Source: Escherichia phage fEg-Eco06
Sequence record: PQ141284.1
Direction: 5' to 3' (one strand)
Length of the DNA: 45,491 nucleotides
Under the pieces are notes generated by a model. It saw only the letters and a program-made list of their open reading frames with translations, was not told the origin of the DNA and did not search any database. This document shows positions 66 through 45,442 of the stretch, in pieces (position 1 is the first letter of the stretch; each line of letters begins with the position of its first letter). The translations under genes were made by a program, and so were the position numbers.

Positions 66-94
66 TTGCACACTGAGATAGAATAGGCTACTAT
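66..94 (+). promoter_or_regulatory. sigma70-like promoter, TTGCAC-N17-TACTATTCA family
   Basis: TTGCAC 66-71, 17-nt spacer, TACTAT 89-94. Same architecture at 11553-11581(-), 21098-21126(-) and 44443-44471(+). Confidence 0.5.
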
Positions 95-125
95 TCATTT
101 ACGCAAACGAGAGGAGAGACTGAAG

Positions 126-254
126 ATGAAAGATTATAGCGAAGTAACTTTGGGTGAGTTGCAGGACGAGTACGAAGATATGCTCTACCCGTTCATCTGC
201 GACGGAGATTACAACGGCGTTTATAACGGAGTGAGCGAAGAATATGAACAATAA
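126..254 (+). CDS. small acidic hypothetical protein (42 aa, below ORF-track cutoff)
   Basis: Hand translation gives MKDYSEVTLGELQDEYEDMLYPFICDGDYNGVYNGVSEEYEQ*. SD-like GAGAGGAGAG lies upstream of ATG 126. The ORF overlaps the next start. Confidence 0.4.
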   Translation: MKDYSEVTLGELQDEYEDMLYPFICDGDYNGVYNGVSEEYEQ

Positions 255-1949: not shown

Positions 1950-2258
1950 TTGGATAAATTTACTGAAACAGTGACAGGCTGGCTTCTCGCTGCCGCGCTA
2001 GCCGGAGGGGTAATCGGACTACGACAACATAAGTCCGTTATTTCTGGCCCCATCGACGGCTTCTGCTTTATTGCAACTGGCTTCACTTGCGCCGTATTCG
2101 GTGCACCTCTCGCGGCTCAATGGTTCGGTATTACCGGAGAGCGCGAGATAGCTGGCCTCGGATTCATCATCGCAATTCTCTGGATGCCCATCTATTCCCG
2201 TCTCTCCGGTATCGTCGCCGGAGAATACATCGCACGTCGAGGAGGCACAGATGAATGA
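1950..2258 (+). CDS. holin (multi-TMD membrane protein)
   Basis: 102 aa with about three hydrophobic segments and a charged C-terminus (ARRGGTDE). TTG start with strong SD. Lies just upstream of the endolysin. Confidence 0.65.
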   Translation: MDKFTETVTGWLLAAALAGGVIGLRQHKSVISGPIDGFCFIATGFTCAVFGAPLAAQWFGITGEREIAGLGFIIAILWMPIYSRLSGIVAGEYIARRGGTDE

Positions 2259-2523
2259 ATTATTCTGGTTCGGCGGTATGCTGGCAATCGGAGGCACATC
2301 GCTGTTTAATGTATATCACCCCAGCGTGGATGACGGATTATTTGGCCGTGTGCTTTATATTCTGACTGCTATTGTCTGCGCCGCCGGATGTATCCACCTG
2401 TTACAGGGCAGCATGTCGCCAACGCTGCCTGAGACATTAATCACATTAGTCGCGCTTCGCCAGATTCGCCAGGCGTGGCTGTCGTATGGAGGACATAAGC
2501 GTGTCTCGAAACATTTCAGATAA
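2251..2523 (+). CDS. second lysis-cassette membrane protein (holin/antiholin-like)
   Basis: 90 aa with 2-3 hydrophobic segments and a basic C-terminus. Overlaps both neighbours. Confidence 0.5.
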   Translation: MNELFWFGGMLAIGGTSLFNVYHPSVDDGLFGRVLYILTAIVCAAGCIHLLQGSMSPTLPETLITLVALRQIRQAWLSYGGHKRVSKHFR

Positions 2524-2986
2524 TGGGTTGCATTTCACCGCTGCGTTTGAGGGGTTCCGAGGTACTGCGTATCGTGCTACGCCGAACGAGAAGTACCTGA
2601 CTATCGGCTACGGTCACTACGGGCCAGACGTAACACCAGGTAAGACCATCACCCCGGGGCAAGGACTCCTGTTACTGAATCGCGACATGGCTAAGGCCGT
2701 AGCTGCGGTTGACGCAGCAGCACACCATTCATTAACACAGGCTCAGTTCGATGCGGTGTGTGACCTGGTATATAACGCTGGCGCCGGCGTGATTGCGGCT
2801 GCTACTGGTACAGGTAAGGCACTGCGTTCTGGTGATATCGAGACGCTGCGGGCTAAGCTGGCGCTGTTCATCAACCAGAACGGCAGACCACTACTCGGCC
2901 TGCGTCGCCGTACAGCAGGTCGCCTGGCGCTGTTCGACGGTAAACCGTGGCAAGAGGCTGAGGCTATTGGGAGAGCCGTTAAATGA
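2486..2986 (+). CDS. endolysin, T4-lysozyme-like (GH24) muramidase
   Basis: HFTAAFEGFRGTAYRATPNEKYLTIGYGH matches the GH24 catalytic-Glu region (E-G-x-x-x-x-A-Y...T-I-G-Y-G-H). An alternative GTG start at 2501 lies behind GGAGGA. Confidence 0.85.
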   Translation: MEDISVSRNISDNGLHFTAAFEGFRGTAYRATPNEKYLTIGYGHYGPDVTPGKTITPGQGLLLLNRDMAKAVAAVDAAAHHSLTQAQFDAVCDLVYNAGAGVIAAATGTGKALRSGDIETLRAKLALFINQNGRPLLGLRRRTAGRLALFDGKPWQEAEAIGRAVK

Positions 2987-3113
2987 TGGACGAATACGAA
3001 GGCATTTAGTAAAATTACTTCCACGCTGCTTGTGCTTGCATACTAAGCCCTGGTAAACCTGAAGCAGCAGCCCAAGCGGTGGAGACTGCGTAGGGTTCAG
3101 GGGCTTATGACCG

Positions 3114-3144
3114 AAACCCGGACCGCGAATCCGGGTTTTATTTT
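3114..3144 (+). terminator. rho-independent terminator after lysis cassette
   Basis: AAACCCGG (3114-3121) pairs with CCGGGTTT (3131-3138), followed by TTTTATTTT. Confidence 0.7.
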
Positions 3145-3149
3145 ACCAA

Positions 3150-3178
3150 TTGACACCTAAGACTAATCCGACGATACT
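3150..3178 (+). promoter_or_regulatory. sigma70-like promoter
   Basis: TTGACA 3150-3155, 17-nt spacer, GATACT 3173-3178. Confidence 0.5.
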
Positions 3179-3184
3179 TAAATC

Positions 3185-3250
3185 ACCTCCTGCTCCATCC
3201 CTCTGCTCTCCAGTTTTATCCCGGCCCTGACCCAGCCGGGATTTTTTTTT
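3185..3250 (+). ncRNA. candidate ~65-nt CU-rich small RNA with anti-Shine-Dalgarno 5' end
   Basis: Bounded by the promoter at 3150-3178 and a terminator: ATCCCGGC 3218-3225 pairs with GCCGGGAT 3235-3242, then T9. No ORF. The 5' region AUCACCUCCU equals the 16S rRNA 3'-end anti-SD. CCCUCU and CUCUCC follow. Confidence 0.35.
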
Positions 3251-3272
3251 ATCTATTTTCGGTAATGACTAG

Positions 3273-3301
3273 TTGACTATTACCCTCGACCCTATTATAT
3301 T
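3273..3301 (+). promoter_or_regulatory. sigma70-like promoter for the 3335-5349 operon
   Basis: TTGACT 3273-3278, 17-nt spacer, TATATT 3296-3301. Confidence 0.55.
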
Positions 3302-3334
3302 TACTCCATCGACAACGAGAACGGAGTAGAGAAG

Positions 3335-3532
3335 ATGAGTAACGTACCGACAATCGCAATAACCGAGGAACTTGAAGCCAAATGTATCGCATCAGTTATA
3401 GGGAATGGTTCGGTGGAAAAACTACAGATGAGGGCCGCTGCGGGCTACATACGCAGGGCTAATAGTGCGATGAATGATTCCTTACGTAAACGTTACCTCA
3501 TGAAAGCGTTAGAAATTCTGGAGAATAAGTAA
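3335..3532 (+). CDS. hypothetical protein
   Basis: 65-aa ORF with GGAGTAGAGAAG upstream. First gene after the promoter. Confidence 0.6.
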   Translation: MSNVPTIAITEELEAKCIASVIGNGSVEKLQMRAAAGYIRRANSAMNDSLRKRYLMKALEILENK

Positions 3533-5465: not shown

Positions 5466-5559
5466 GTACATCCCGCCCAATCCCCTTATATAATCTATTT
5501 AGACGCGTAGGGCGCGTCTGGTGCGCTCTGATGGTCAGACGCATATGCAAGGGGATTCT

Positions 5560-6069
5560 ATGAAGCTGAAACTTAAGCAGCCATCACCAGAGGTGGTGCA
5601 AGCTGCACATGAAGAAGCTGTTAGCGCAAACCGTCGCCGTAAACGACCGCGCGGTAAACAGAGCCTTTATCAATCATCCCGTAATTCCGCTGCGCTGTGG
5701 GACCCGGACTATTGCGACGAATTGATTCGTTTCTTTGACCGCACGTCGTGGGAGCTTGTGCCAACGTCTAAGGGTGATGAACGCCCACTGATTCAGGATA
5801 AGCCGCCGTCACTGGCCCGCTTCGCCTTACACATCGGCGTAACTATCCCGATAATTAAGCTGTGGCTGCGCGAGATTCCCGCATTTGCAGAAGCCTGGGA
5901 GACAGCACAGGCGCTGGAAGAGGCATACTTCACTGAAACGGGGGCCGCGGGCATCTCTGCTACGTTTGCTGCCGCGAAACTGGGCCTGAATAAAACAGTT
6001 GTCGCCGAAGAAGTACGCGACGAGCCAATCAGCGAAGTAACAATTAAGGTGGTGCCCGGTGAACGTTAA
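5560..6069 (+). CDS. terS: terminase small subunit
   Basis: Lies immediately upstream of and overlapping terL. Basic N-terminus, and an HTH-like segment PSLARFALHIGVTIPIIKLWLRE. ATG 5560 lies behind AAGGGGA; the track ORF starts at GTG 5521. Confidence 0.7.
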   Translation: MKLKLKQPSPEVVQAAHEEAVSANRRRKRPRGKQSLYQSSRNSAALWDPDYCDELIRFFDRTSWELVPTSKGDERPLIQDKPPSLARFALHIGVTIPIIKLWLREIPAFAEAWETAQALEEAYFTETGAAGISATFAAAKLGLNKTVVAEEVRDEPISEVTIKVVPGER

Positions 6070-7330
6070 TATCACGGCAACGGAGCCGCAAGGCGCGTTT
6101 CTCGGTATGCATTGCAAGTTTCCGGCATTCGTAGCTGGCTTCGGTACGGGTAAATCCGAAGTTATGTGCAACTCTGCACTACTCGACAGCATGGAAGGTG
6201 GTAGCGATTCTATCATCGCCATGTATGAGCCGACCTATGACCTGGTGCGCCTCATCCTTGCACCGCGTATGGAAGAAAAGCTCACCGACTGGGGTATCCG
6301 GTACAAATACAACAAGTCTGACAACATAATCTATACGTCTTCCGGACAATTTGGGGATTTTGTTCTGCGTACACTTGATAATCCAGCAAGAATCGTTGGC
6401 TACGAATCGTTTCGTGCGAAAATCGACGAGTTGGACACCCTTAACATGGAGCACGCCGAGCACGCGTGGAACAAAGTCATCGCCCGTAACCGCCAGTTGC
6501 CGCGGACATATAAACCTATTACACCGAAACCTGCTAATACCGTTTCCGTGTTCACTACCCCGGAAGGATTCCGTTTCGTACATGACCGCTGGGTAGTCAA
6601 AAAGAATCCAGGCTACGAGATGATTCAGGCGTCCACCCTGTCTAACCCGTTCCTGCCAGAAGATTATGTGCAGTCGTTACGCGACACATACCCAGGTCAG
6701 TTGATTGACGCCTACATCGACGGCAAGTTCGTAAACCTCACGTCCGGAACGGTATACTATGCTTACGACCGCAGGAAAAACAGCAGTCGCGAAACAATCA
6801 ATCCCGGCGAGACTCTGTATATTGGGCAGGACTTTAACGTAGGTCACATGGCGAGCACGGTTTACGTGCAACGCGGTAAGGTCTGGCACGCTGTTGCCGA
6901 GTTGGTTGATATGTTCGATACGCCTGACGTAGTGCGGGCCATAACTGAGCGATGGAAAAGTAAGGGCCACTATATCGTTATGTACCCGGACGCCAGCGGC
7001 AAAAACCGTAAAAGCAACAACGCCAGTACCTCAGACATCGCTCAGTTACAGCAGGCCGGTTTCGAAGTACGCGCCAAATCAACAAACCCGCCGGTTAAAG
7101 ACCGCGTATCAGCAATGAACAAGGCGCTTGAATCTGGTATGGTCATGATTAATGAGCAGGCATGCCCGGTTACGGCGCGATGCCTTGAGCAACAGGCTTA
7201 CGACAAGAACGGCGAACCGGATAAATCGGGTGGTGTGGACCACCAGAACGACGGGACCACATATCCTATCGCGTATGAAATGCCGATTCGCAAACCAGTT
7301 ATTAATGTCCCGGTGACTTTCGCACTTTAA
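6059..7330 (+). CDS. terL: terminase large subunit
   Basis: 423 aa. Walker A-like AGFGTGKSE near the N-terminus and an acidic nuclease-type C-terminal half. Position is between terS and portal. Confidence 0.85.
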   Translation: MNVNITATEPQGAFLGMHCKFPAFVAGFGTGKSEVMCNSALLDSMEGGSDSIIAMYEPTYDLVRLILAPRMEEKLTDWGIRYKYNKSDNIIYTSSGQFGDFVLRTLDNPARIVGYESFRAKIDELDTLNMEHAEHAWNKVIARNRQLPRTYKPITPKPANTVSVFTTPEGFRFVHDRWVVKKNPGYEMIQASTLSNPFLPEDYVQSLRDTYPGQLIDAYIDGKFVNLTSGTVYYAYDRRKNSSRETINPGETLYIGQDFNVGHMASTVYVQRGKVWHAVAELVDMFDTPDVVRAITERWKSKGHYIVMYPDASGKNRKSNNASTSDIAQLQQAGFEVRAKSTNPPVKDRVSAMNKALESGMVMINEQACPVTARCLEQQAYDKNGEPDKSGGVDHQNDGTTYPIAYEMPIRKPVINVPVTFAL

Positions 7331-7342
7331 GAGGATTATTCA

Positions 7343-8824
7343 ATGTTAACTATGAACGGTCATAATCAGGGTGTTAAGACAAAACACCGGGAATGGCTGC
7401 AGCACTTCAATAAATGGCAGAAGGTTCGCCATGCGCTGGAAGGCGACCTTATTCGCTATCTGCGCAACGTTGGGAAGAATGAGCCGGACCCGACCTACGC
7501 GGCACAGCGCCAGGAAGAATACGAGAACGGCGCTATCTGTTACAACTTCACCAAGAGAACGCTGGCGGGGATGGTCGGCAGTGTCATGCGCAAAGACCCT
7601 GAGCAAATTATCCCGCATGAACTGGAATACCTGTTGCACAACGCTGACGGTTCAGGCGTCTGGCTGTGGCAGCACGCGCAGGATACGTTAATGGAGATTA
7701 ACTCGATAGGACGTGGTGGGTTGCTGGTTGACGCCCCGGAGACTGCTGCCGCAACGGCAGCTGAACAGAACGCAGGGTTATTAAACCCGGTCATCGCATT
7801 CTACACCGCAGAGAACATCATCAACTGGCGACTGACCCGCGTCGGTTCTGTTAACCGTGTGACAATGGTCGTGTTGCGTGAAGTGTGGGAATACTCAGAA
7901 CCTGGAGCAGAGTTCGAAACTAAGTTCGGTGAACAGTACCGCGTCCTTGACCTGATTGATGGTCGCTACCGCCAGCGCATTTACCGTTTCGACGCCGAGG
8001 GCGGCGCTCAGGGCGAAGTAATCGAAATCTTCCCGGAACTCGGCGAACAGTTACGCGGCAAAATCCCGTTCACGTTCATTGGTGCAAGCAACAACGATGC
8101 AACCATTGACGATGCACCTTTGCTGCCGTTGGCTGAGCTTAATATTGGGCATTTCCGCAACAGTGCAGACAATGAGGAGTCCAGCTTCGTCGTAGGCCAG
8201 CCTACTCTGTTCATCGCCCCCGGTGAGAACATGAGCATGGAACAATGGAAAGAAGCCAACCCGCACGGAGTGCGTATGGGGTCACGTTCTGGCCATAACA
8301 TCGGTTACGGCGGCAATGCGTTTCTGGTCCAGGCCGGTGAGAACAACCTAGCCAAGCAGAACATGCTGGATAAAGAGAATCAGGCCATCCAGATTGGTGC
8401 GCAGCTTATCACCCCTACCCAGCAAATCACCGCTGAATCAGCCCGCCTGCAACGTGGTGCCGACACGTCCGTTATGGCGACAATTGCACGTAACGTAAGC
8501 ATGGCGTATACCGATGCGCTAAAGTGGGTTGCGGGTATGCTTGGGCTTAGTGACGGCACTGAAATTGAGTTCAAACTGAACATGGAGTTCTTCCTGCAAC
8601 CAATGACCGCCCAGGACCGCGCTCAGTGGATGGCGGATATTAACGCGGGCCTGTTACCGGCTACCGCTTACTATGCCGCGTTGCGTAAGGCGGGGGTAAC
8701 TGACTGGACAGACGAGGACATTCAGAACGCTATCGAGGATGCGCCGCTGCCGTTAGGTGCTGTTACTCAGGTGGCGGGGGAGATTCCGCAGTCGGCGCAG
8801 CAACAGGACACCACTCAGCCGTAA
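7343..8824 (+). CDS. portal protein
   Basis: 493 aa, directly after terL, with AAGAGGA SD and an acidic/Gln-rich C-terminus. Called from synteny and size. Confidence 0.75.
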   Translation: MLTMNGHNQGVKTKHREWLQHFNKWQKVRHALEGDLIRYLRNVGKNEPDPTYAAQRQEEYENGAICYNFTKRTLAGMVGSVMRKDPEQIIPHELEYLLHNADGSGVWLWQHAQDTLMEINSIGRGGLLVDAPETAAATAAEQNAGLLNPVIAFYTAENIINWRLTRVGSVNRVTMVVLREVWEYSEPGAEFETKFGEQYRVLDLIDGRYRQRIYRFDAEGGAQGEVIEIFPELGEQLRGKIPFTFIGASNNDATIDDAPLLPLAELNIGHFRNSADNEESSFVVGQPTLFIAPGENMSMEQWKEANPHGVRMGSRSGHNIGYGGNAFLVQAGENNLAKQNMLDKENQAIQIGAQLITPTQQITAESARLQRGADTSVMATIARNVSMAYTDALKWVAGMLGLSDGTEIEFKLNMEFFLQPMTAQDRAQWMADINAGLLPATAYYAALRKAGVTDWTDEDIQNAIEDAPLPLGAVTQVAGEIPQSAQQQDTTQP

Positions 8825-8860: not shown

Positions 8861-10831
8861 ATGCTATTAACTTTAGTACCACAGGGTTTAACTATGAGCT
8901 TACTTACATCCCTCATCAGCCATCAGATATGGCTGCAACGCACCGCATCCGGTGAGGTGAAAGACCTCACACCGTTCATTCAGGAGATGCGGGATGAAAT
9001 TAAACGGCAGGTGCTGTTATTCGGTGACGACGGTCGTAGCACTGCGCGACTGAATAAATTGTTACGCGACCTTGAGGAAGCACTAACCGGACTTACGGGC
9101 GACTGGCAGACAAAGCTGACAGAAGACCTTAAGGAACTGGCGGCGTATGAGGCCGAGTGGAACGTAAAGACTCTGACCGCCAACGTTAACGCGGAATTTG
9201 TTACCCCTACCGCGGAACAGGTGTGGGCCGCTGCCGAGTTTCAGCCATTATCGTTGAGTGACAAGCCCGTTGATTTCACTAAGCTGATGGACGGCTGGGG
9301 TGAAACAGAAGTCGCGCGCCTGGTAACCGGCGTTAAGATGGGCTTTGTACAAGGCCAAACCACACGGCAGATTGTTAAGAACGTCGTAGGCGCTGGCGGA
9401 CTGGCGGACATCTCTGAGCGTAACGCGGCCACCGTAATCCGTACTGCACTGTCTCACGTATCCAACGAAGCACGTAACGAGACGTACCGCCAGAACGACG
9501 ACATCATCGAGAAATATGAGTGGGTGTCTACGCTGGACAGCCGTACCAGTACAACGTGTTTCACGGCTGAAACAGAATTAGCGCCCATCGCGGGGATGGA
9601 CGCGGTAATGCGCGGACTCTATTCAGGAAAAATCTTTACCATCGAACTTTCCAACGGCGAGAAGTTCAGTGGCACCCCGAAACACCCTGTACTCACGCAA
9701 TACGGATGGACTCCGCTTGATGAACTCGATCCAACTAAGCATGTCTTGTATACCACTGTTGACAAAGTGACTGTGCTCGAAACAGTGAAGAACATAAACA
9801 TGCCAGCCAGAGCGGATTATATTTTTAATACGCTCGCTGATTTCCCCATCAGGAAAATGGTAAGCACGAGTCCCGCGGCAACAGATTTCTATGGCGATGG
9901 AGTGGGACTCAATGGCAAAATCGACATTGTACGGGCCGATTGCAAACTGCGGAACTACGTCCACGCCAGCGGAATTAAACAATTCAAAAGCGAGGGTTTC
10001 AGTCTTATTCATAGCGCCGCTTTGCTGTCGGACGATAGCTCTGGCGATTTTCTCCTCCGGGGTGAATGTCCTGTGAGTGTGCCCGCGCTTAGCGAGGCCA
10101 AGTGTTTTGACCATAGAATAGAAAACTGTTTTGCTTACTTGGGTCCTTCTTATGCACTCAATAGGCGGGACGCCGGACTCGAACAATTCTATAGCCCTTT
10201 TTTGATTCAAAATGGTGTCGTTAGAAACCCAACCACGGGGTCGATCATGCATGAGTCCGAGCTTCTTGAGAAATGTTGTTACCGTGGTGGTAGTGACGCC
10301 GTAATTCTTGGCTATGATGCTGGCGGGAGTGCCATCTCGGTACAAAGAACAAATATCATCCGCATAAGCGTCGAGTTTAGAACGTGCCATGTTTATACCC
10401 TCTCTAGTAGTCAAGGATATTATACAGCAGGTAGTGCGATAGTCAAGAATTGCAGGGCCAGAGACGGGATGGCGTGGGAAATCGGTAAAGGTCCGATGCC
10501 CCCCGCCCATCCGAACTGTCGAAGTACCACTGCACCTGTAATCAGTTCGGAGTTCGACTTCCTGGATAAAGGCGCAAAACGCGCGGCTAAGGGTGCAGAA
10601 GGCGGCACTCAGGTAAGCGCAGACACCACATATTACGAGTTCCTGAAACAACAGCCCGCATGGTTTCAGGACCAGGCGCTCGGCCCGGTGCGAGGTAAGA
10701 TTTTCCGTAACAGCGGTATATCGCCGGAAGAGTTTCGCGTAATATCTGTAGATGGTTTCGGGAATCCGCTCACGCTTAAGCAGATGGCGGAACTCGATAA
10801 ACGTGTTGCTGATTATCTGAAAGGGGGATAA
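8861..10831 (+). CDS. head morphogenesis protein (Mu F / SPP1 gp7-like), intein-containing precursor
   Basis: 656-aa ORF. The extein halves join as ...EWVSTLDSRTSTT / CRARDGMAWEIGKGPMPPAHPNCRST, the Mu-F-type C-terminal motif. The predicted spliced product is 358 aa. An alternative start is ATG 8894. Confidence 0.75.
   Translation: MLLTLVPQGLTMSLLTSLISHQIWLQRTASGEVKDLTPFIQEMRDEIKRQVLLFGDDGRSTARLNKLLRDLEEALTGLTGDWQTKLTEDLKELAAYEAEWNVKTLTANVNAEFVTPTAEQVWAAAEFQPLSLSDKPVDFTKLMDGWGETEVARLVTGVKMGFVQGQTTRQIVKNVVGAGGLADISERNAATVIRTALSHVSNEARNETYRQNDDIIEKYEWVSTLDSRTSTTCFTAETELAPIAGMDAVMRGLYSGKIFTIELSNGEKFSGTPKHPVLTQYGWTPLDELDPTKHVLYTTVDKVTVLETVKNINMPARADYIFNTLADFPIRKMVSTSPAATDFYGDGVGLNGKIDIVRADCKLRNYVHASGIKQFKSEGFSLIHSAALLSDDSSGDFLLRGECPVSVPALSEAKCFDHRIENCFAYLGPSYALNRRDAGLEQFYSPFLIQNGVVRNPTTGSIMHESELLEKCCYRGGSDAVILGYDAGGSAISVQRTNIIRISVEFRTCHVYTLSSSQGYYTAGSAIVKNCRARDGMAWEIGKGPMPPAHPNCRSTTAPVISSEFDFLDKGAKRAAKGAEGGTQVSADTTYYEFLKQQPAWFQDQALGPVRGKIFRNSGISPEEFRVISVDGFGNPLTLKQMAELDKRVADYLKGG
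9623..10390 (-). CDS. putative homing endonuclease (two HTH motifs plus Vsr/DUF559-like PD-(D/E)XK domain) encoded antisense within the intein
   Basis: 255 aa from ATG 10390 (MARSKLDAYADD...). SD AGAGAGGG lies 7 nt upstream. HTH-like segments are GTPASIIAKNYGVTTTTVTTFLKKLGL and GVPPIECIRRTQVSKTVFYSMVKTLGL. The nuclease-like core is ETLAFELF...QFAIGPYNVDFAI..HSIAIEI...SGWHVYVL. Confidence 0.65.
   Translation of the reverse strand: MARSKLDAYADDICSLYRDGTPASIIAKNYGVTTTTVTTFLKKLGLMHDRPRGWVSNDTILNQKRAIELFESGVPPIECIRRTQVSKTVFYSMVKTLGLAKRGHTHRTFTPEEKIARAIVRQQSGAMNKTETLAFELFNSAGVDVVPQFAIGPYNVDFAIESHSIAIEICCRGTRAYHFPDGEISERIKNIIRSGWHVYVLHCFEHSHFVNSGIQDMLSWIEFIKRSPSVLREYRVFRGATELLAVGKFDGKDFS
10419..10446 (-). 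promoter_or_regulatory. near-consensus sigma70 promoter for the antisense endonuclease gene
   Basis: On the minus strand: TTGACT (10446-10441), 16-nt spacer, TATAAT (10424-10419). This lies 28 nt upstream of ATG 10390 and inside the intein C-terminal splicing-block codons. Confidence 0.65.
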
Positions 10832-11296: not shown

Positions 11297-11322
11297 AGGC
11301 CCCGTTATGGGGCCTTAGTTTT
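11297..11322. terminator. bidirectional rho-independent terminator
   Basis: AGGCCCC (11297-11303), loop GTTAT, GGGGCCT (11309-11315), then TAGTTTT. Lies between convergent genes. Confidence 0.65.
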
Positions 11323-11525
11323 CAACGGAATCTTGTGTTTAAATCCTGCTCATGGACAACCCTCAGAACAGTGTCATAATCCCCGTATCTTCCAGGTTCA
11401 AATATATCTAATGCCTTGTAAGCAGACATTGCGTCAGGGAAAACCTGCAGAACCTTTTTAACCCGGCACAAGTCACCGTCGAACTCTTCATCGAACTCTT
11501 GAACTACTTCGCAAATTGCATACAT
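11322..11525 (-). CDS. hypothetical protein
   Basis: 67-aa ORF with a perfect SD AGGAGGTGA upstream of ATG 11525 and its own promoter. Confidence 0.65.
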   Translation of the reverse strand: MYAICEVVQEFDEEFDGDLCRVKKVLQVFPDAMSAYKALDIFEPGRYGDYDTVLRVVHEQDLNTRFR

Positions 11526-11552
11526 TTTTCACCTCCTGTTTAAGTTAACTGA

Positions 11553-11581
11553 ATAGTACCCTATTATATTGGTGTGTGCAA
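11553..11581 (-). promoter_or_regulatory. promoter, TTGCAC-N17-TACTATTCA family
   Basis: On the minus strand: TTGCAC (11581-11576), 17 nt, TACTAT (11558-11553). Near-identical over ~35 nt to 21098-21126(-) and 44443-44471(+). Confidence 0.55.
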
Positions 11582-14981: not shown

Positions 14982-15161
14982 ATGGCAGATAATTATGTAA
15001 TCCGCGAAAAGTACACCCACGTTGATATTGTTGATGGGCAGGTGATGCCAGTTCGCGGTGTTGTAGACGCGGATGAACTGGTTGCAACACAACCGGACAG
15101 CGAAGAAGCGCACAACAACGGCGGTGGTACTAAGCGTCGTCGCCGTAAGTCAGAGGAATAA
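14982..15161 (+). CDS. small hypothetical protein (59 aa, below track cutoff)
   Basis: Hand translation gives MADNYVIREKYTHVDIVDGQVMPVRGVVDADELVATQPDSEEAHNNGGGTKRRRRKSEE*, with AAGGAAAGG SD. Confidence 0.5.
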   Translation: MADNYVIREKYTHVDIVDGQVMPVRGVVDADELVATQPDSEEAHNNGGGTKRRRRKSEE

Positions 15162-15164
15162 TTT

Positions 15165-15677
15165 ATGCCGCTAATCGTGGAAGATGGGTCGATAGTACCT
15201 AACGCTGACAGTTACGTTAGTCTGGCTGACGCCCGCGCGTTAGCGGCTAATTATGGCCTGGAGCTACCGGAAGACGATACTGCCACCGAAGTAGCCTTGC
15301 GCAACGGCGCTACTTATGTCGGGCTTGCAGAACCGCAGATGTGCGGCCGCCGTGTGTCCGCCGAGCAGTCCCTGGCGTACCCACGTACGGGAACAACACT
15401 AAACGGCTTCACCGTAGCTGATAATGTTATCCCACCGCAGTTAATCCGGGCGCAGGTAATCGCCGCTGTTACGTATGGAGCGGGCACTGATGTTCGGGCT
15501 AACTCCGATGGACGTTCCGTGCAGACCGAGCGTGTAGAGTGTGCGGTAACAGTTACCTACTTCAACAACGGCAACAGCGGGGCCACAACCGCGATTACCG
15601 CCGCTGACGACGCCTTACGCCCGTTACTGTGTGGTGGTCTTAACAACGGCTTCTCATTTAATGTGTACCGGGGTTAA
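15165..15677 (+). CDS. head-tail connector/adaptor protein
   Basis: 170 aa. Called from its position between the capsid and neck genes. Confidence 0.45.
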   Translation: MPLIVEDGSIVPNADSYVSLADARALAANYGLELPEDDTATEVALRNGATYVGLAEPQMCGRRVSAEQSLAYPRTGTTLNGFTVADNVIPPQLIRAQVIAAVTYGAGTDVRANSDGRSVQTERVECAVTVTYFNNGNSGATTAITAADDALRPLLCGGLNNGFSFNVYRG

Positions 15678-21082: not shown

Positions 21083-21097
21083 CGTTGGTGTAAGTGA

Positions 21098-21126
21098 ATA
21101 GTACGCTATTATATTGGGGTGTGCAA
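21098..21126 (-). promoter_or_regulatory. promoter, TTGCAC-N17-TACTATTCA family, driving the leftward island
   Basis: On the minus strand: TTGCAC (21126-21121), 17 nt, TACTAT (21103-21098). Confidence 0.55.
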
Positions 21127-21233
21127 GTAGTGTGCTAGAATAATTTTGCGCCTAGTGTCGCACACGAAAAGCGGGTGGTTCCCGTCTGGCGCATTTCCTT
21201 TAACCAGTAACCTCTTAACCAAAGGATTAAAGA

Positions 21234-31859: not shown

Positions 31860-33280
31860 TTCTTACCTCGTCTCTTCATGTAATTAAGCAACTCTTCCTG
31901 TACCGATTTCTTCTCGTCAGTACGTGTGGTAACAACCTCGTCCAGCGTGTCTTTAGCGACGATGTGATAGAGGAACACCGGTCGCTCGTGCCCCGCTTGT
32001 TTCTGGCGGACCGGGCCTATACGCTCAACAACCTGCAAATAGTGCTCAAGGTTCCAGCCTTGCGAGATGAACGCCAGATGATGACCCCCGTCCTGTAAAT
32101 TCAAACCATGCCCGGCTGACGCAGGATGCACGCATAAAATCTCGATTTCCCCACGGTTCCACGCTTCCATCTGCTTATTACCCTTCGCACCTTTGGCAAA
32201 TGCCTGGGCCTGCGGGAATCGCTTAAGGATGCGCTCCAGTTCGTGCTTGAACTGATAGGCCACCAGTAACGGCGCGCCCTGTAACTCTTCCACAATGGAC
32301 TCCAGTGCGTCCAGTTTCGTGTCGTGCACTTTCTCCCAGTCTTTGGTTGCTTCGCCGTCAGGGCCAGATACATACACGGCACCGGAGGCAATCTGCAGAC
32401 ACTTCGACGTCTTCGCCGCTGCGTTAGCCGCTTCAACTTCTCCGCTCTCCAGTTCCGCGAATAACTTCTCCTCCATATCTATGTACGCCTGGCGCGCTTT
32501 CTTCGGCAGGTCGATTTCCACCGGTACGATAACAGGCGCTTCACAACCGAACCACTCGGCGGCGTCAATCGTCAGACTGATGTCCTTCATCTTCTGGTGA
32601 ATCTCGTTATCTGCACCAGGGCGGGCGTGATATTCACGTGCCATCGCAGATTTTCCTTTCTGTACCGAATTAAACCAGCGGTCGGTGAATGCTGTATACG
32701 ACGAACCTAGGCGCTCGCCAGCGTCGATAAACCAGTTCTGGCCCCACAAATCCTTGAGGCCGTTTGGTGACGGTGTACCAGTCAGGTTAATAAAACGCTT
32801 AACCCTTCCGAAAGCCACTTTACTAAGCGCCTTTGCACGCTTGCTACCACCTGAACGGCTGCGGAATGATTTAAGCTTCGTGCTTTCATCTGCAACGATA
32901 ACCGTAAAAGGCCAGTCGTCTTTGCCGTAGTAGTCAATCAGCCACTCGATAACCTCATAGTTCGTGCAAACCACGTTAGCATCTGACTCCAGCGCCGCGA
33001 TGCGGCGCTTCTCTGAACCAGTCGCATCTACAACACGCAGACATGGGAATTGCCATTTCTCTTGCTCTGCAGGCCACGTACCGGATGCAACACGCAACGG
33101 GGCGAGGATTAACACGCGGTCATCTTCTGTAAGCTGCCCGTTGCGAAACAGGCGATTAAGCACCCACATAGTTGAGGAGGTTTTGCCCCCTCCCATGCCG
33201 CACCAGATATTACAGCGCGGGTGTTGCAGCATGAACGAGGTCATGAGCTTCTGATATTCGCGCCTTTTAAACTTACTCAT
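31856..33280 (-). CDS. SNF2/DEAD-like helicase
   Basis: Walker A CGMGGGKTS, DExx box VIVADESTKLKS, and a helicase-C-like C-terminal half (HPASAGHGLNLQ). Confidence 0.8.
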   Translation of the reverse strand: MSKFKRREYQKLMTSFMLQHPRCNIWCGMGGGKTSSTMWVLNRLFRNGQLTEDDRVLILAPLRVASGTWPAEQEKWQFPCLRVVDATGSEKRRIAALESDANVVCTNYEVIEWLIDYYGKDDWPFTVIVADESTKLKSFRSRSGGSKRAKALSKVAFGRVKRFINLTGTPSPNGLKDLWGQNWFIDAGERLGSSYTAFTDRWFNSVQKGKSAMAREYHARPGADNEIHQKMKDISLTIDAAEWFGCEAPVIVPVEIDLPKKARQAYIDMEEKLFAELESGEVEAANAAAKTSKCLQIASGAVYVSGPDGEATKDWEKVHDTKLDALESIVEELQGAPLLVAYQFKHELERILKRFPQAQAFAKGAKGNKQMEAWNRGEIEILCVHPASAGHGLNLQDGGHHLAFISQGWNLEHYLQVVERIGPVRQKQAGHERPVFLYHIVAKDTLDEVVTTRTDEKKSVQEELLNYMKRRGKK

Positions 33281-34420: not shown

Positions 34421-34708
34421 CTAACTATAATAGTTCGCTATTAGGGCGTCAACCTGTTTAAACGAACCAACGACAAAAACATTAGCACCACGCTTACGCA
34501 TCCGCTCGTGCTCCCGTAACTGGTGTGGATCCGGCTTCGTGCTTTCGTCTTTCTTTATCTCGACGAACCAGATGACGCCGCCGGGGAGAATTACCAGCAG
34601 GTCAGGGGCGCCGGAACGTCCTTCGTAGGAAAGTTTACGAACGAGGCCACCAATGGCCTCGAATCGGTCTTTTGCGTATTTCTGTATTTTGCCCTCAGGC
34701 GTACTCAT
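34421..34708 (-). CDS. VRR-NUC domain nuclease
   Basis: GAPDLLVILPGGVIWFVEIKK supplies the D...E-x-K of PD-(D/E)XK. ATG 34708 lies behind GAGGGG. Confidence 0.7.
   Translation of the reverse strand: MSTPEGKIQKYAKDRFEAIGGLVRKLSYEGRSGAPDLLVILPGGVIWFVEIKKDESTKPDPHQLREHERMRKRGANVFVVGSFKQVDALIANYYS
34424..34452 (-). promoter_or_regulatory. promoter, TTGAC(A/G)-N17-TATAGT family
   Basis: On the minus strand: TTGACG (34452-34447), 17 nt, TATAGT (34429-34424). Shares its AATAG...CTATTATAGTT core with 37842-37870 and 40764-40792. Confidence 0.55.
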
Positions 34709-37841: not shown

Positions 37842-37870
37842 ACTATAATAGCTAACTATTCATGTGTCAA
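37842..37870 (-). promoter_or_regulatory. promoter, TTGACA-N17-TATAGT family
   Basis: On the minus strand: TTGACA (37870-37865), 17 nt, TATAGT (37847-37842). Overlaps the 3' end of the upstream ORF. Confidence 0.55.
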
Positions 37871-38059: not shown

Positions 38060-39345
38060 TCTAAATCCTCCTCTGTAACTTGATTCCACTCAGGACGTTT
38101 GTCATCCGCCGTTGCGACGCATGGCGCACCGGGCTTACGGGTAATGAAGTCTTTCAGTTCTTCTTCCGGTACAATTTTAACCGCTTCGGTCGGTGTCATA
38201 AGAACTACCTTTTGCAGCATAGTACCGTACTTCTCGAATACTGCATCGGTATCTTTCCACGCACGATTACCCGGGCGTCCTTCAACCAGTTTATACCCCG
38301 GCACTTTCTTACCGGAATGTAACGCAGCAGCCATAGCTTTCTCAACCTTGTCGATGTGCTGGCGCAACAACGGCAACTTCTCATACTCAGCTACGAGTTG
38401 CTCTGGCGTAAGCTCAAGTGCAAAGTCGTCCTCCAGTTCTTCCGCCAGCCCCGCGTTAACGGTTTTTGTACGCGCTGCGCATTGTTCAGAGAACCGACAC
38501 CACTGACAACCATCTACCGACGGCTTGAAGTCCGACGCTTTCAGGTTCTTTTTACCCCGGAAATAGGCATCAAGAGCCAACAGCGCCCGTTTCTGTGCAA
38601 ACTTAGCGAACAGTTCCAGACCTTCAACCGAGATGTCCCACTCCGATGCACCGCCAGCGTACGGCTGGAAGATGACCAGTCGAACGGTTGTTATGCTATA
38701 ACGTCTCTTGAGTCGGCGATAAACGCCGAGAGCATAAAGCATAAGCTGCTTGTTTTCTTTCGCTTCGACACGATGCCGCCCGGTTTTCAGGTCGCAGATG
38801 ATAAGCATGTGTTCGTCGGTGTTAGCCAGTTCCTGTATGGCAACAAGGTCAGCAGTTCCGAACGTCTCCACAGTTTTAAAAACCCCGGCGTTGCCATCCC
38901 CCGGCTCCCCAGCAACACGAAACATATAGCCAGGATGCAATACCTCAGTAAGATTGACCCGCATTTCCAGCTTAGCGTAAGCCGCTACGTCGATAATCGC
39001 TTTGCAGTAGTCGGTGTACTTGCGCACCTGCTCAATCATGTCCGCCGTAATCAGTACAGCACCTTTCATCGGGCGGATTAGTGCCTTAATCTGGCCTTTG
39101 CCCTCATCCAGCACATAAGCGCCAACTTCACGCTCTAACGGCAACGCAGTTCCGCGAATATAGGCGTTGAGATGGACCTCAGCTATAGTGTGGCACGCAG
39201 TCCCTGTAACGGCGGCTTTACCGGACGTGTTAGGGATATCTTTTTCGCAGGCCAGGGATGCGGCACAACTCAGCCACTTTTTAGCGCCCGATGGCGACAG
39301 TAAGGCGTGAACATCATTATTGCCGCCGCGTTCCTTTAAAATCAT
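38056..39345 (-). CDS. PD-(D/E)XK exonuclease, DUF2800/Cas4-like
   Basis: Motifs ADLVAI...ICDLKTG, and a C-terminal Cys cluster CQWCRFSEQC. ATG 39345 is ATGA-coupled to the upstream gene. Confidence 0.7.
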   Translation of the reverse strand: MILKERGGNNDVHALLSPSGAKKWLSCAASLACEKDIPNTSGKAAVTGTACHTIAEVHLNAYIRGTALPLEREVGAYVLDEGKGQIKALIRPMKGAVLITADMIEQVRKYTDYCKAIIDVAAYAKLEMRVNLTEVLHPGYMFRVAGEPGDGNAGVFKTVETFGTADLVAIQELANTDEHMLIICDLKTGRHRVEAKENKQLMLYALGVYRRLKRRYSITTVRLVIFQPYAGGASEWDISVEGLELFAKFAQKRALLALDAYFRGKKNLKASDFKPSVDGCQWCRFSEQCAARTKTVNAGLAEELEDDFALELTPEQLVAEYEKLPLLRQHIDKVEKAMAAALHSGKKVPGYKLVEGRPGNRAWKDTDAVFEKYGTMLQKVVLMTPTEAVKIVPEEELKDFITRKPGAPCVATADDKRPEWNQVTEEDLE

Positions 39346-40515: not shown

Positions 40516-40731
40516 TTACTCGCCGTCGCCTTCTGTAAGGCTATCGTCTATTAATTCAAATTTACCGTTTGAGTGTTGTATAGCTTCTTGCCCGCAATGG
40601 GCACAGACAATAAGTTTATCGAACCCATCAAACTCATCCCCCACCACGCAAGAAAGTACAAATTTATGTTTTGTACATACTTCTTGAGGTTCACCGAAAA
40701 TTGCGTGAAAACATCTCGCCACTACATTCAT
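40516..40731 (-). CDS. small zinc-ribbon-like protein
   Basis: 71 aa with Cys/His pairs (C..H...C...CAHCG). First gene behind the promoter at 40764-40792. Confidence 0.55.
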   Translation of the reverse strand: MNVVARCFHAIFGEPQEVCTKHKFVLSCVVGDEFDGFDKLIVCAHCGQEAIQHSNGKFELIDDSLTEGDGE

Positions 40732-40763
40732 CTTCTGTCTCTCCTCTCGTTTGGTATGGGTTA

Positions 40764-40792
40764 ACTATAATAGCGAACTATTCACATGTCAA
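40764..40792 (-). promoter_or_regulatory. promoter, TTGACA-N17-TATAGT family
   Basis: On the minus strand: TTGACA (40792-40787), 17 nt, TATAGT (40769-40764). Confidence 0.6.
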
Positions 40793-41283: not shown

Positions 41284-43547
41284 TCCAAATCCTCCTCTGT
41301 CACTGTCAACATTTCATTCGGTTCGTATATTGTCTTTGGAATCTTGTTATCAGTTATTCTGGTGTTCAGCCTGTAACGACCTGGGATTATCTGATTGTTT
41401 TCGTCAGTACCCGGAACAAGATACCCGGCCTCAACCATTTTCTTAATCTTCCCGCGTTCTATGGCTTCTTTGGAGTTAAACGCCTTTGCGTTGGGGTCTG
41501 ACTGTGCGAGCTTATTCGCCGCGGCGACTGTGATGCCTTCGTTGCCGTTGTAGGTTCCTTCCGCCAGTTCAAACGCCGCGAGTATCGTGGCCTCCGAACT
41601 GTTGACGGCGTTCTCTACGGTTTTACGTACATTTTCTTTACCTTCTTTCGTCAACCCTTCTTCCCGCTCTTTCTCCTCGTCAGTTTTGAACGGCTCGAAA
41701 CCCCACGGCATCAACACAAGCGCCTTGTGTGGTTCAGGCAGGTCCAGGTTTACGATTGTGCCGTATTCCTCTGTGCTACCCAGGAACTCAACCGCTCGGT
41801 ATTCTTTAGGCGGCGGCGCTTCACGGAACTGTACCGACTCCAGCACCATGCCAACCGTCTTCTGCTGAGGCCCGTGCTTGAATTTCGAGTGATATACGTT
41901 TATCTGACGGTCGGTTGCACGTTCGATTGTCAGTTCCACGTCAACACCCGCATACAGCGCCCCACTGCCGCGTGCTTTCTTTCCACCCTTCGGCGTATGG
42001 TGGACAACGCCTACTGCGGCTTTAGTTGCATCGCGTACTTCTTTCAGAATGGCGATAACTTTACCCATGCCGATTGCTGTTGATGAACTGTTCTCGTCGA
42101 ACTTATCAATCGTCAGTGCCAGGGTCTGGTTAAGGGTGTCGAACGCAACCATGCCAATTGGCTCGTCGCCAGCAGTTTCGCGCATTAACTTAATCAGGCT
42201 TTTAAGTTTGCCGACTTCGCCCATATCGATGACATGTACATAATCTTTACCTTCCTCGCCGTATTTAGCCGCGAGCGCATCAATACGTGTACGTGTGGCT
42301 GCCCCACCCTCGCCGTCGATATAGAAATGGTGACAACGCTGGGTGTCAGCCCCTGCAAACCGGTATCCGGCGGCGCTCAGGTACATCATCCCCAGCGTAT
42401 AGAATGATTTGTACGTGCCCGATTCTCCGACGATACCCCAGATACAATCCGACGGCATGTACCCCTCAACGACGAAATCAGCCTTTACCGGCTCCGGTAA
42501 CTCGTCCTCCTCTGAGTCCTCGTCGTCTTCCAGGTCGTCGAGGCTGCATGAGACAGATTCACGCGCCCCCCAACCGATGGCCTCTGCGACTTCACTGAAC
42601 GGCAGCCCGGTCGCATCGCACGCGTACTTCCACACCTCTTTCGGTGACAGGCCTTCTGTCGCCGTAATGTCTGTGTCGTGAATCATGGTTACGTTAGGCG
42701 CTTCGTATCCCTCGCGCGGGAAGCACAGCAGGAAGTCGTCCGGACGCGGCGTTGGGTCACTGTAGTTTTCAGCGTGTTCCGGTGTAGCTGGCATCTTAAG
42801 GCCGCGTGGTGTCATAACTCCGCCGTACTCGAACGCCAGCGCTTCGAACGCATCAGTAAACGCGGAGCGCAGTTCTTCCGGTATCTGGTAATCCGATGCG
42901 CTGCTCACCTCGTAATCCGGTATGCCTTCCAGTAACTCGTCCGGGTCAATCAGGTCGTTGCGACGCGACCAGATAACGGTAGAGCCGACCGGCGGCAGGT
43001 ACATCGGCTGGGACAGAGTGAACCCGCTGCGGTCAGCGCCCATGCCTTCGAAGAAGTGCTCCAGCAAGCCATGACGAACACGGATGATGTCGCCGCCTTC
43101 AACCGGGCGGCCCAGCGGCATGACGACGCGAAAGCGCGGTGACTCATCAGTATGTGATGCCGTGGTATACAGGCACATAACCTGACGGCTGCGCTTAACC
43201 AGGCGCACCGCTTCCTGGTACTCTTCCGGTGTTGCACTGTCGAAGTCCAGATACGCCAGCGACGATTTGCTCACAGACGCGTCACAGCGATAGAAGAAGC
43301 CTTTACGCGCTTGTTTAAAGCCACCGGTTTCCGGGTCTTTTACGGTGCTGTGCGCAGAGTCGCACGCGGCAGTAATATAGCCTGGCGCTGTCTTCGGGTT
43401 GATCCCGTCACGAACAGCATCGAGCGGCTGGATTAACTCTTTCAGGTCATCCAGTGTTGCCGTGTGTGTGGTTCTGACGTTTATATCCTTTTTCTCTGCC
43501 CGCGCGTTGCGACGTGACCACGAGTAGGATAAAATTACATCGGACAT
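41280..43547 (-). CDS. DNA primase/helicase (N-terminal primase-like domain plus RecA/DnaB-like P-loop ATPase)
   Basis: 755 aa. Walker A GIVGESGTYKSF, Walker B-like MVAFDTLNQ, and an acidic linker DDLEDDEDSEEDE. Confidence 0.7.
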   Translation of the reverse strand: MSDVILSYSWSRRNARAEKKDINVRTTHTATLDDLKELIQPLDAVRDGINPKTAPGYITAACDSAHSTVKDPETGGFKQARKGFFYRCDASVSKSSLAYLDFDSATPEEYQEAVRLVKRSRQVMCLYTTASHTDESPRFRVVMPLGRPVEGGDIIRVRHGLLEHFFEGMGADRSGFTLSQPMYLPPVGSTVIWSRRNDLIDPDELLEGIPDYEVSSASDYQIPEELRSAFTDAFEALAFEYGGVMTPRGLKMPATPEHAENYSDPTPRPDDFLLCFPREGYEAPNVTMIHDTDITATEGLSPKEVWKYACDATGLPFSEVAEAIGWGARESVSCSLDDLEDDEDSEEDELPEPVKADFVVEGYMPSDCIWGIVGESGTYKSFYTLGMMYLSAAGYRFAGADTQRCHHFYIDGEGGAATRTRIDALAAKYGEEGKDYVHVIDMGEVGKLKSLIKLMRETAGDEPIGMVAFDTLNQTLALTIDKFDENSSSTAIGMGKVIAILKEVRDATKAAVGVVHHTPKGGKKARGSGALYAGVDVELTIERATDRQINVYHSKFKHGPQQKTVGMVLESVQFREAPPPKEYRAVEFLGSTEEYGTIVNLDLPEPHKALVLMPWGFEPFKTDEEKEREEGLTKEGKENVRKTVENAVNSSEATILAAFELAEGTYNGNEGITVAAANKLAQSDPNAKAFNSKEAIERGKIKKMVEAGYLVPGTDENNQIIPGRYRLNTRITDNKIPKTIYEPNEMLTVTEEDLE

Positions 43548-43605
43548 GTTGTATTTCCTTCAGCAAGTAATTTGGCCTCGGCGTTCACCGCGTCGGGGCT
43601 TTCTT

Positions 43606-43839
43606 TTATTCCAGGTCTTCTAAAGTAGCTGTCATTCCGCGAACTTCAGCATCAGCGCTATATTTCCCACCAACGTTTTTCACGACACCGGATTTAACCA
43701 GCACCTTCAACGACCCTTCAATAATGGCTGAACTATAGTACTTAAAATAACTACGGCGCAAGTCGATAACACTGCATGACCCTTTTTTACGTGTTAACGA
43801 AACGACCGCCGTAAATACGCGTGACTGGAACTCTGTCAT
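43606..43839 (-). CDS. hypothetical small protein (possible winged-helix)
   Basis: 77-aa ORF, ATGA-coupled to the upstream HTH gene. Confidence 0.5.
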   Translation of the reverse strand: MTEFQSRVFTAVVSLTRKKGSCSVIDLRRSYFKYYSSAIIEGSLKVLVKSGVVKNVGGKYSADAEVRGMTATLEDLE

Positions 43840-44403: not shown

Positions 44404-44442
44404 AAGAAACGAAAGAATCACAGCGGCAACGTAACTATTCTC

Positions 44443-44471
44443 TTGCACACCCCAACATAATAGGGTACTAT
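44443..44471 (+). promoter_or_regulatory. promoter, TTGCAC-N17-TACTATTCA family
   Basis: TTGCAC 44443-44448, 17 nt, TACTAT 44466-44471. Drives the rightward ORFs from 44506. Confidence 0.55.
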
Positions 44472-44505
44472 TCACTTATCGAAACGAGACAGAGGAGTGA
44501 GGGTT

Positions 44506-44697
44506 ATGTTTAAGAAGGGTCAGTTGGTTAAAACTAAACGCGGAGGGCAATATGTATTAGTGTTGCAGGACGAGAGCGAGTATGACGAGGATAATCTGGT
44601 TGACGTATGGGGTCTGGTAAGAAAGAAAACTGGGTTCGCCTCACGCGATAATTTAGAACTCATCGGCAACAATTTTAAATTCAAAGGGGCGAAGTGA
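44506..44697 (+). CDS. hypothetical protein
   Basis: ATG 44506 (MFKKGQLVKTKRGG...) lies behind AGAGGAGTGAGGG. Confidence 0.6.
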   Translation: MFKKGQLVKTKRGGQYVLVLQDESEYDEDNLVDVWGLVRKKTGFASRDNLELIGNNFKFKGAK

Positions 44698-45408: not shown

Positions 45409-45442
45409 CAGGTCAATAGGTTACTATTTGTCTTTGTGACTT

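Follow-up and report, generated by a model that had tools for sequence, protein, structure and literature searches.

Does the short gap between the lysis genes and the next operon of Escherichia phage fEg-Eco06 (PQ141284.1) encode an RNA of its own and, if so, what would that RNA do? We analyzed a 45,491-nt stretch of this phage (the window), which represents a Kagunavirus of the Guernseyvirinae and is 92-99% identical to Kagunavirus phages (K1G, K1ind, XY1 and Golestan). The Guernseyvirinae, to which both Jersey-like Salmonella phages and K1-type coliphages belong, are isolated in many places and find use in biocontrol and therapy cocktails, although the regulation of their genes has hardly been studied. 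The original prediction, made from the sequence of the window, proposed an autonomous promoter-terminator cassette that yields a ~65-nt CU-rich RNA starting with the anti-Shine-Dalgarno (anti-SD) sequence of 16S rRNA and occluding ribosome-binding sites. Terminator 1, promoter P1, an ORF-free CU-rich stretch, terminator 2 and promoter P2 all lay at the positions given there (Table 1), and ~10 small genes of unknown function follow the cassette. As detailed below, the interval is very probably a real, conserved and previously unannotated small-RNA gene.

Table 1. Positions of the cassette, its neighbours and the candidate target leaders in the window
Feature	Position	Strand	Description
Promoter and leader A, candidate target	66-128	+	TTGCAC-17-TACTAT; leader AACGAGAGGAGAGACUGAAGAUG; ATG 126
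Holin genes (two)	1950-2258, 2251-2523		Upstream of cassette
P22-type endolysin gene	2486-2986		Upstream of cassette
Terminator 1	3114-3144	+	AAACCCGGA-CCGCGAA-TCCGGGTTTTATTTT; outside the conserved cassette
Promoter P1	3150-3178	+	-35 TTGACA 3150-3155, 17-nt spacer, -10 GATACT 3173-3178; 10 of 12 consensus positions
Predicted ~65-nt small RNA	3185-~3249	+	Predicted +1 at A3185; 3' end in U tract
CU-rich single-stranded region	3185-3217	+	15 C, 12 U, 3 A, 3 G
Conserved blocks of CU-rich region	CUCCUG 3187-3192, CAUCCCUCU 3196-3204, GCUCUCC 3205-3211	+	Then UUUUA next to the hairpin
Terminator 2 (intrinsic)	3218-3250	+	Stem ATCCCGGC 3218-3225 / GCCGGGAT 3235-3242; loop CCUGACCCA; T run to 3250
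Promoter P2	3273-3301	+	TTGACT 3273-3278, 17 nt, TATATT 3296-3301
P2 and ~30-nt leader	3273-3337	+	Ends at first ATG 3335; same conserved module; candidate pairing partner
ORFs at positions of phage Jersey small and large terminase genes	5521-6069, 6059-7330
Portal gene	7343-8824
Mu-F-like head gene	8861-10831	+
Promoter and leader B, candidate target	40715-40792	-	TTGACA-17-TATAGT; leader AACGAGAGGAGAGACAGAAGAUG; ATG 40731

A consensus scan returned 6 promoter-like sites per 3 kb, against 2.9 expected, and the match of P1 alone was not beyond chance; the case for a real unit therefore came from comparison with relatives. Conservation of P1 was read from alignments of GenBank phages and of 40 non-redundant IMG/VR loci, which were concordant. 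Both hexamers and their 17-nt spacing were kept in every Guernseyvirinae locus reaching far enough upstream, with the single exception of locus L127. By contrast, the spacer was ~50% identical between the genera and wholly unrelated in locus L031, in which hexamers and spacing were still kept, and the 7-nt discriminator after the -10 differed among relatives (TAAATCA, AAACCTG and GGTGTCG). Sequence conservation started again, with CUCCUG, at the predicted +1, which is A in Kagunavirus and G in Jerseyvirus. Hexamers and spacing that are fixed, with a spacer and discriminator that vary, amount to promoter-type conservation and would fit a real small-RNA gene. The transcript had been expected to begin near 3184; the usual 7-nt distance from the -10 puts its probable start at A3185, and the Jerseyviruses have a purine (G) at the same distance.

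In L127 (IMGVR_UViG_3300015181_000003), the sole relative in which P1 is replaced, no -10 element is present, and TAGTTGACTACTCGCCTAAC is fused directly to ACCTCCTG, ~75 nt upstream of the pattern match at 1291 (matched reverse-complement strand). The CU-rich region and terminator of this contig are intact despite the missing -10.

Conservation in related phages had been named as a check on the original prediction, and it proved extensive. A 221-nt query recovered the cassette from 444 records of related E. coli and Salmonella phages, including ~325 Salmonella Jerseyviruses at 73-78% identity, and in most of the 444 the homology begins exactly at the first T of TTGACA. For comparison, 492 records carry a portal protein at least 60% identical to that of the window, with the next relatives dropping to 45%; the cassette is present in 444 of ~492 phage records at the level of the Guernseyvirinae. 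It was likewise found in all ~50 IMG/VR contigs recovered by a P2 pattern or a small RNA (sRNA) pattern: loci found through P2 all carry P1 and the terminator where enough upstream sequence is available, and another scan, with a pattern taken from the RNA, led to the same 41-45-kb contigs, L127 (P1 -10 absent) being the exception. Comparison of the window with phage Jersey gave ~75% identity over the cassette and ~67% over the RNA body (the 33 nt from P1 to the hairpin), whereas 4-fold degenerate sites in the genes for portal, large terminase and endolysin reached only 37-43%.

We built a covariance model from 24 homologues; it picked out a single copy in the window, at 94 bits, with no second one there, and likewise a single copy in Jersey, at 78 bits; nine pattern-selected bacterial control loci scored at most 23 bits. 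Searching 185,579 bacterial and archaeal genomes with a pattern for the CU block and terminator gave 67 matches in unrelated taxa, from which the nine control loci had been sampled; these look like chance and were discarded. No complete E. coli genome matched 3150-3340 in a blastn search, so the unit is not a prophage or host element. A 20-bit match to the model was also seen at 43544-43606, in and around the gap between two leftward genes. At this site (43507-43610, +), a promoter-like TTGCGA-17-TAAAAT is followed ~40 nt later by a terminator-like hairpin (43574-43600) with a T-rich tail, antisense to the ends of both genes.

In the records of phages Schulenburg and Snoke, the site of terminator 2 already carries the annotation 'terminator'; none of the relatives' records that we inspected annotates P1 or the RNA. 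We found no report of a Guernseyvirinae sRNA in the literature, and a 2025 review of phage sRNAs mentions no RNA from this group in its main text (PMC12197685). The Kagunavirus K1B4 carries the cassette (OQ696342.1, complement(15125..15189); 88 bits), and RNA-seq of its infection is available as gene-level data (PMC12645636) and as a public series (PRJNA939978 / PRJCA028359). From the conservation of the cassette, we consider it highly likely that a discrete transcript is made from it. If so, an sRNA present in ~90% of sequenced Guernseyvirinae would be among the few known from strictly virulent enterobacterial phages.

The predicted RNA has the anatomy of an sRNA that pairs with ribosome-binding sites, as proposed: the interval 3185-3251 is devoid of ATG, GTG and TTG, the RNA is CU-rich and its 5' end is single-stranded. 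Folding gave -13.8 kcal/mol, with the 5' 33 nt unpaired in both the MFE and centroid structures. Within this region, the blocks (C)CUCCUG, CAUCCCUCU and GCUCUCC or AGCUCC are conserved in both genera, with indels between the blocks. The 3' module consists of UUUUA, an 8-bp GC-rich stem and U8-9, and the U tail is 7-11 nt long in all homologues. Such a module, UUUUA followed by a GC-rich hairpin and U8-9, is typical of Hfq-binding enterobacterial sRNAs. The further features of this class are also found here: the promoter is conserved independently of its neighbours (the flanks are mosaic), a U/A stretch precedes a terminator with a U tail of at least 7, and the conserved seed is single-stranded.

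In the alignment of homologues, 91.7% of cells in the terminator 2 stem are paired. Covariation, another proposed check, amounted to one compensatory change between the genera (C-G to U-A), besides one G-U variant in locus L035; this counts as a single evolutionary event, compatible with an RNA structure without being strong evidence of one. The loop CUGACC is almost invariant among homologues, which is more than a plain terminator would require.

We then considered how the cassette is inherited. P2 and its leader are nearly invariant up to the ATG, though the first gene varies among phages, and the phage Jersey record lists P2 as a promoter. Variable flanking DNA meets the conserved part precisely at the P1 -35 on one side and at the ATG behind P2 on the other, indicating that P1, the RNA, the terminator, P2 and the leader move as one module. 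Within it, P1 and terminator 2 form a pair whose conservation, seen in two genera, is separate from that of P2, in line with the autonomy claimed for the unit. Upstream of TTGACA the DNA is variable, being the end of the endolysin gene, other genes or a ~160-bp insertion with terminator 1. K1H and the Jerseyviruses lack terminator 1, and their P1 -35 overlaps or abuts the stop codon of the endolysin gene, leaving terminator 2 as the first terminator after that gene; in these phages terminator 2 also ends the lysis operon, whose mRNA has the CU-rich sequence as its 3' end.

The ~160-bp insertion (2987-3149), which separates the endolysin stop from P1 in the window, contains a weak promoter-like site (2987-3015) in addition to terminator 1. 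It is found only in some Kagunaviruses (Schulenburg, Snoke, L013, L015, L027 and L054), is shorter in the Golestan type, matches no Rfam family and has a fold z-score of -1.3.

Portable promoter-leader modules recur in the window, at 66-128 (+), 3273-3337 (+), 40792-40729 (-), ~44440-44508 (+) and ~11580-11523 (-). Each is kept right up to the ATG and is followed by a different first gene in different phages; in other phages, for instance, a sliding-clamp or a methyltransferase gene comes after the 11525-type module. The leader motif AACGAGA..GGAG is common to four of the modules. We also noted a palindrome, AATAG-N4-CTATT, present in 8 copies in the window against 0.03 expected (82-95, 11552-11565, 21097-21110, 34429-34442, 37847-37860, 40769-40782, 44459-44472 and 45415-45428). 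Most copies overlap or abut a promoter -10, either in TTGCAC..TACTAT (82, 11552, 21097 and 44459) or in TTGACA..TATAGT (37847 and 40769), and P1 is without one. The palindrome may be the operator of a phage regulator or the signature of a promoter class.

Elsewhere in the window, the Mu-F-like head morphogenesis ORF (8861-10831, +) encodes 656 aa, compared with 347 aa in phage Jersey. Its extra ~300 aa gave a weak, sub-threshold intein-splicing match (20.6 bits; cut-off 35.8), and a 342-aa ORF with a weak HTH_7 match lies opposite (9623-10651, -); the enlargement may be an intein or homing-endonuclease insertion. At gathering thresholds, Rfam returned for the whole window only a match unrelated to the cassette, the int-alpA RNA motif (RF02996) at 21145-21209 (+; 36.6 bits, cut-off 35.8). 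This motif lies within a long 5' UTR that runs from a promoter-like site at ~21085-21115 to ATG 21234, the start of a gene in the tail-assembly-chaperone position by synteny with Jersey gp26.

The likeness to 16S rRNA, with which the RNA had been said to begin, holds in part. The 10-mer AUCACCUCCU (also written ATCACCTCCT) occurs once in the window, at 3182-3191, and is identical to the 3' end of 16S rRNA. However, this identity is confined to Kagunaviruses, two contigs of which carry ACUCCUUG at this position; the Jerseyviruses have GCUCCUG there. In addition, the first ~3 nt (AUC) are probably upstream of the start at 3185, which would leave ACCUCCU alone within the RNA. Of the 16S-like stretch and the CU-rich body, only CUCCU(G) and CAUCCCUCU are conserved across both genera.

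Next, we examined which messages the RNA might meet. The leader of the leftward gene starting at 11525 had been proposed as a target. This 67-aa ORF (11322-11525, -) does carry CAGGAGGTGA upstream of its ATG, a real complementarity of 8-10 nt, but at -14.7 kcal/mol it ranked only 50th by duplex energy among the 82 SD-bearing starts in the window, and the gene is present in only 22 records and its promoter-leader module in ~137, compared with 444 for the cassette. We therefore rejected it. The best genome-wide duplex matches, 38882-38921 and 32426-32465 (-), lie inside long coding genes and were treated as chance. Better placed are the promoter-proximal leaders sharing AACGAGA..GGAG..GAUG, namely A, P2, B and that at 44506, of which the CU-rich region reads as the antisense (CUCUCC/GGAGAG, UCUG/CAGA and CAUC/GAUG). 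These leaders rank 5, 9, 14 and 44 among the 82 starts; the start of the exonuclease gene (39345, -) ranks 2nd of 82, and its Jersey counterpart 4th of 69.

In the window, predicted duplexes of the RNA with the shared leaders had energies of -16 to -25 kcal/mol; for Jersey RNAs on Jersey leader A the range was -23 to -29 kcal/mol. Against same-composition shuffles, the window RNA gave -22.5 kcal/mol with the P2 leader (p=0.037), -24.7 kcal/mol with leader B (p=0.06; rank 9 of 82) and -16.2 kcal/mol with leader A (p=0.46), and the Jersey RNAs gave -26.5 to -28.9 kcal/mol with Jersey leader A, the gp57 translation-initiation region (p=0.004 and 0.0005), the leaders for these tests having been picked after seeing the data. 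Of 69 annotated translation-initiation regions, Jersey leader A pairs best with the Jersey RNA; in an unbiased best-of-genome test, 20% of same-composition shuffled RNAs found an equally good best target (p=0.2). Cofolding, which includes the costs of unfolding, gave net binding of -13 to -22 kcal/mol for leaders P2, A, B, Jersey A and Jersey P2, and every such duplex spans both SD and AUG. The RNA also varies together with leader A, Jerseyvirus AGCUCC facing GGAGCU and Kagunavirus CUCUCC facing GGAGAG. This covariation across genera is suggestive, but a clear advantage of own-genus over cross-genus pairs was seen only with the Jersey RNA.

These results bear on the claimed occlusion of ribosome-binding sites in two ways. 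Pairing with the SD-to-AUG segments of several phage leaders was found, and it beats shuffles in the Jerseyvirus, but it is borderline in the window. Moreover, any CU-rich RNA finds good SD partners; target specificity is weak and no single target stands out. Because such RNAs pair so readily with SDs (20% of shuffles as good), an occluding function can be called only plausible. Occlusion of ribosome-binding sites by the ~65-nt pyrimidine-rich RNA is nevertheless the best-supported mode of action, in which we place about even confidence on the sequence evidence, and the occluded sites would most probably be those of the phage's own first cistrons.

We envisage the following course of events. 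The host sigma-70 RNA polymerase would initiate at P1, at about A3185, and transcription would halt at the strong intrinsic terminator 2, releasing an RNA of ~65 nt. Its first ~33 nt would be unstructured and pyrimidine-rich, and its 3' end would have the form used by Hfq-binding enterobacterial sRNAs. The CU-rich region would then pair with purine-rich SD-to-AUG segments, CUCUCC or AGCUCC with GGAGAG or GGAGCU, CAUC with GAUG and the 5' (C)CUCCUG with CAGGAG(G), so that ribosome entry is blocked. Its likeliest partners would be the phage's own AACGAGA..GGAG..GAUG leaders (P2, A, B and 44506). Since P1 is an ordinary sigma-70 promoter, the RNA would build up from the onset of infection and lower the translation of the first cistrons; host mRNAs may also be targets. 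If true, the RNA and the shared promoter-leader modules would provide a testable model for the timing of early-gene translation.

Two other explanations were weighed first. Control could act in cis, transcripts from P1 stopping at terminator 2 until a condition or a phage factor triggers read-through into the P2 operon (small genes, terminase and structural genes), as in lambda pR'-6S-tR' with Q or in an attenuator; the short RNA would then be a by-product. Promoter, short transcript and terminator do stand directly upstream of an operon leading into terminase and head genes, P1, terminator and P2 are inherited as one module, and the terminator loop shows the conservation expected of a site recognised by a protein or an RNA. 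A putative boxA-like UGCUCU / GCUCCUUUA was also noted. However, the sequence downstream of +1 (Kagunavirus ACCTCCTGCTCC, Jerseyvirus GCTCCTGCTTATTC) contains no conserved -10-like pause element (TANNNT-like), the P1 spacer, where lambda Q would bind, is not conserved, and neither the Jersey annotation nor the Rfam searches showed a Q-, N- or put-like feature. We accordingly judged antitermination of the Q, N or put type unlikely. P2 is itself near-consensus, so its operon could be expressed without read-through, and the conservation of the CU-rich blocks would be left unexplained; control in cis as a whole appears rather unlikely. It is also unlikely that the interval merely punctuates two operons, with the hairpin as lysis-operon terminator, the T tract as an UP-like element for P2, a weak or fortuitous P1 and a CU stretch lacking RNA function. 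The position of terminator 2 directly after the endolysin gene in K1H and the Jerseyviruses, the retention of the rest of the cassette in L127, a T tract ~22-30 nt upstream of the P2 -35 and the chance-level match of P1 in a single sequence would all agree with this reading. It does not account for P1 hexamers and spacing that are invariant across two genera and L031, with its unrelated spacer, where neutral sites are ~40% identical, nor for the ~67% identity and conserved blocks of the 33 nt between P1 and the hairpin; moreover, the window has a lysis terminator of its own (3114-3144) and yet retains the whole cassette.

A further possibility keeps the RNA as the active product and dispenses with defined targets. 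As a decoy, it could imitate the 3' end of 16S rRNA and titrate strong SDs globally, or it could sequester S1 or Hfq as a sponge, biasing translation. The 16S identity in Kagunaviruses points this way, as do the many translation-initiation regions that pair about equally well, with no outstanding target, and the best sub-threshold Rfam likeness, which is to a Betaproteobacteria toxic sRNA family (25 bits). The 16S-identical stretch is not conserved in Jerseyviruses, however, and part of it is probably untranscribed; stoichiometric titration of SDs or S1 would demand very high copy numbers, and the phage's own mRNAs use the same SD types. We regard such a role as quite improbable, and its stricter form, in which an abundant phage-made mimic of the 16S 3' end competes with ribosomes for strong SDs throughout the cell, as very improbable; if true, the latter would mean that translation is reprogrammed during infection in an RNA-based shut-off of host or early genes.

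Finally, we compared the candidate with known RNAs. Rfam searched at E<=10 on 2980-3360 gave sub-threshold noise only, and the RNA is not a member of the CyaR, toxic-sRNA, oop or sar families. The best similarity was to RF02278 (Betaproteobacteria toxic small RNA), which likewise is short and has pyrimidine-rich motifs and a terminator hairpin; the match (3204-3249; 25 bits, E=0.005) reached half the gathering threshold of 50 bits, belongs to another host clade and was driven by hairpin and composition, and membership was rejected. Among phage RNAs, lambda oop, P22 sar and lambda 6S are similarly short transcripts (65-200 nt) with a constitutive promoter and a nearby terminator. Whereas oop and sar are cis-antisense to a gene on the opposite strand, there is no such gene at the cassette: no ORF of at least 30 aa lies opposite 3150-3248, and the sole minus-strand ORF nearby (3249-3392) is under P2 and the first gene. 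The sar model gave only a noise match, on terminator 1 (E=8.7). A Q-antitermination site gives rise to lambda 6S as its unmodified product; the layout of such a site (constitutive promoter, short terminated transcript, position upstream of a late or structural operon) is present here; the features of that system are not, as the alignments and the Jersey annotation contain no conserved pause element, conserved promoter spacer or annotated antiterminator.

Bacterial sRNAs and a phage regulatory strategy offer closer parallels. T4 RegB and RegA are phage products that inactivate early messages at GGAG-containing ribosome-binding sites; the analogy is functional only, as those are proteins and the effector proposed here is an RNA. 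sRNAs from mRNA 3' ends of the DapZ and MicL type have their own promoter and share the terminator of the operon. In K1H and the Jerseyviruses, the arrangement is alike, with the P1 -35 at the endolysin stop and an RNA that uses the operon's terminator, but the DapZ and MicL promoters lie inside coding sequence and are stress-regulated, whereas P1 is intergenic, consensus-like and in a phage. The conserved seed of CyaR (RyeE) contains the 16S-like CCACCUCCUUA. CyaR is a short Hfq-dependent sRNA with its own promoter and intrinsic terminator that represses its targets by SD pairing. Binding to the ompX SD has been shown (PMC11795201). CyaR gave no match to the cassette, either at its gathering score or at E<=10 on 2980-3360, and it differs in having its seed in a hairpin loop and in being chromosomal and CRP-regulated, compared with the linear 5' seed and virulent phage considered here. 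By analogy, the predicted RNA would thus be closest in mechanism to SD-pairing sRNAs such as CyaR and in placement to 3'-end sRNAs with a promoter of their own.
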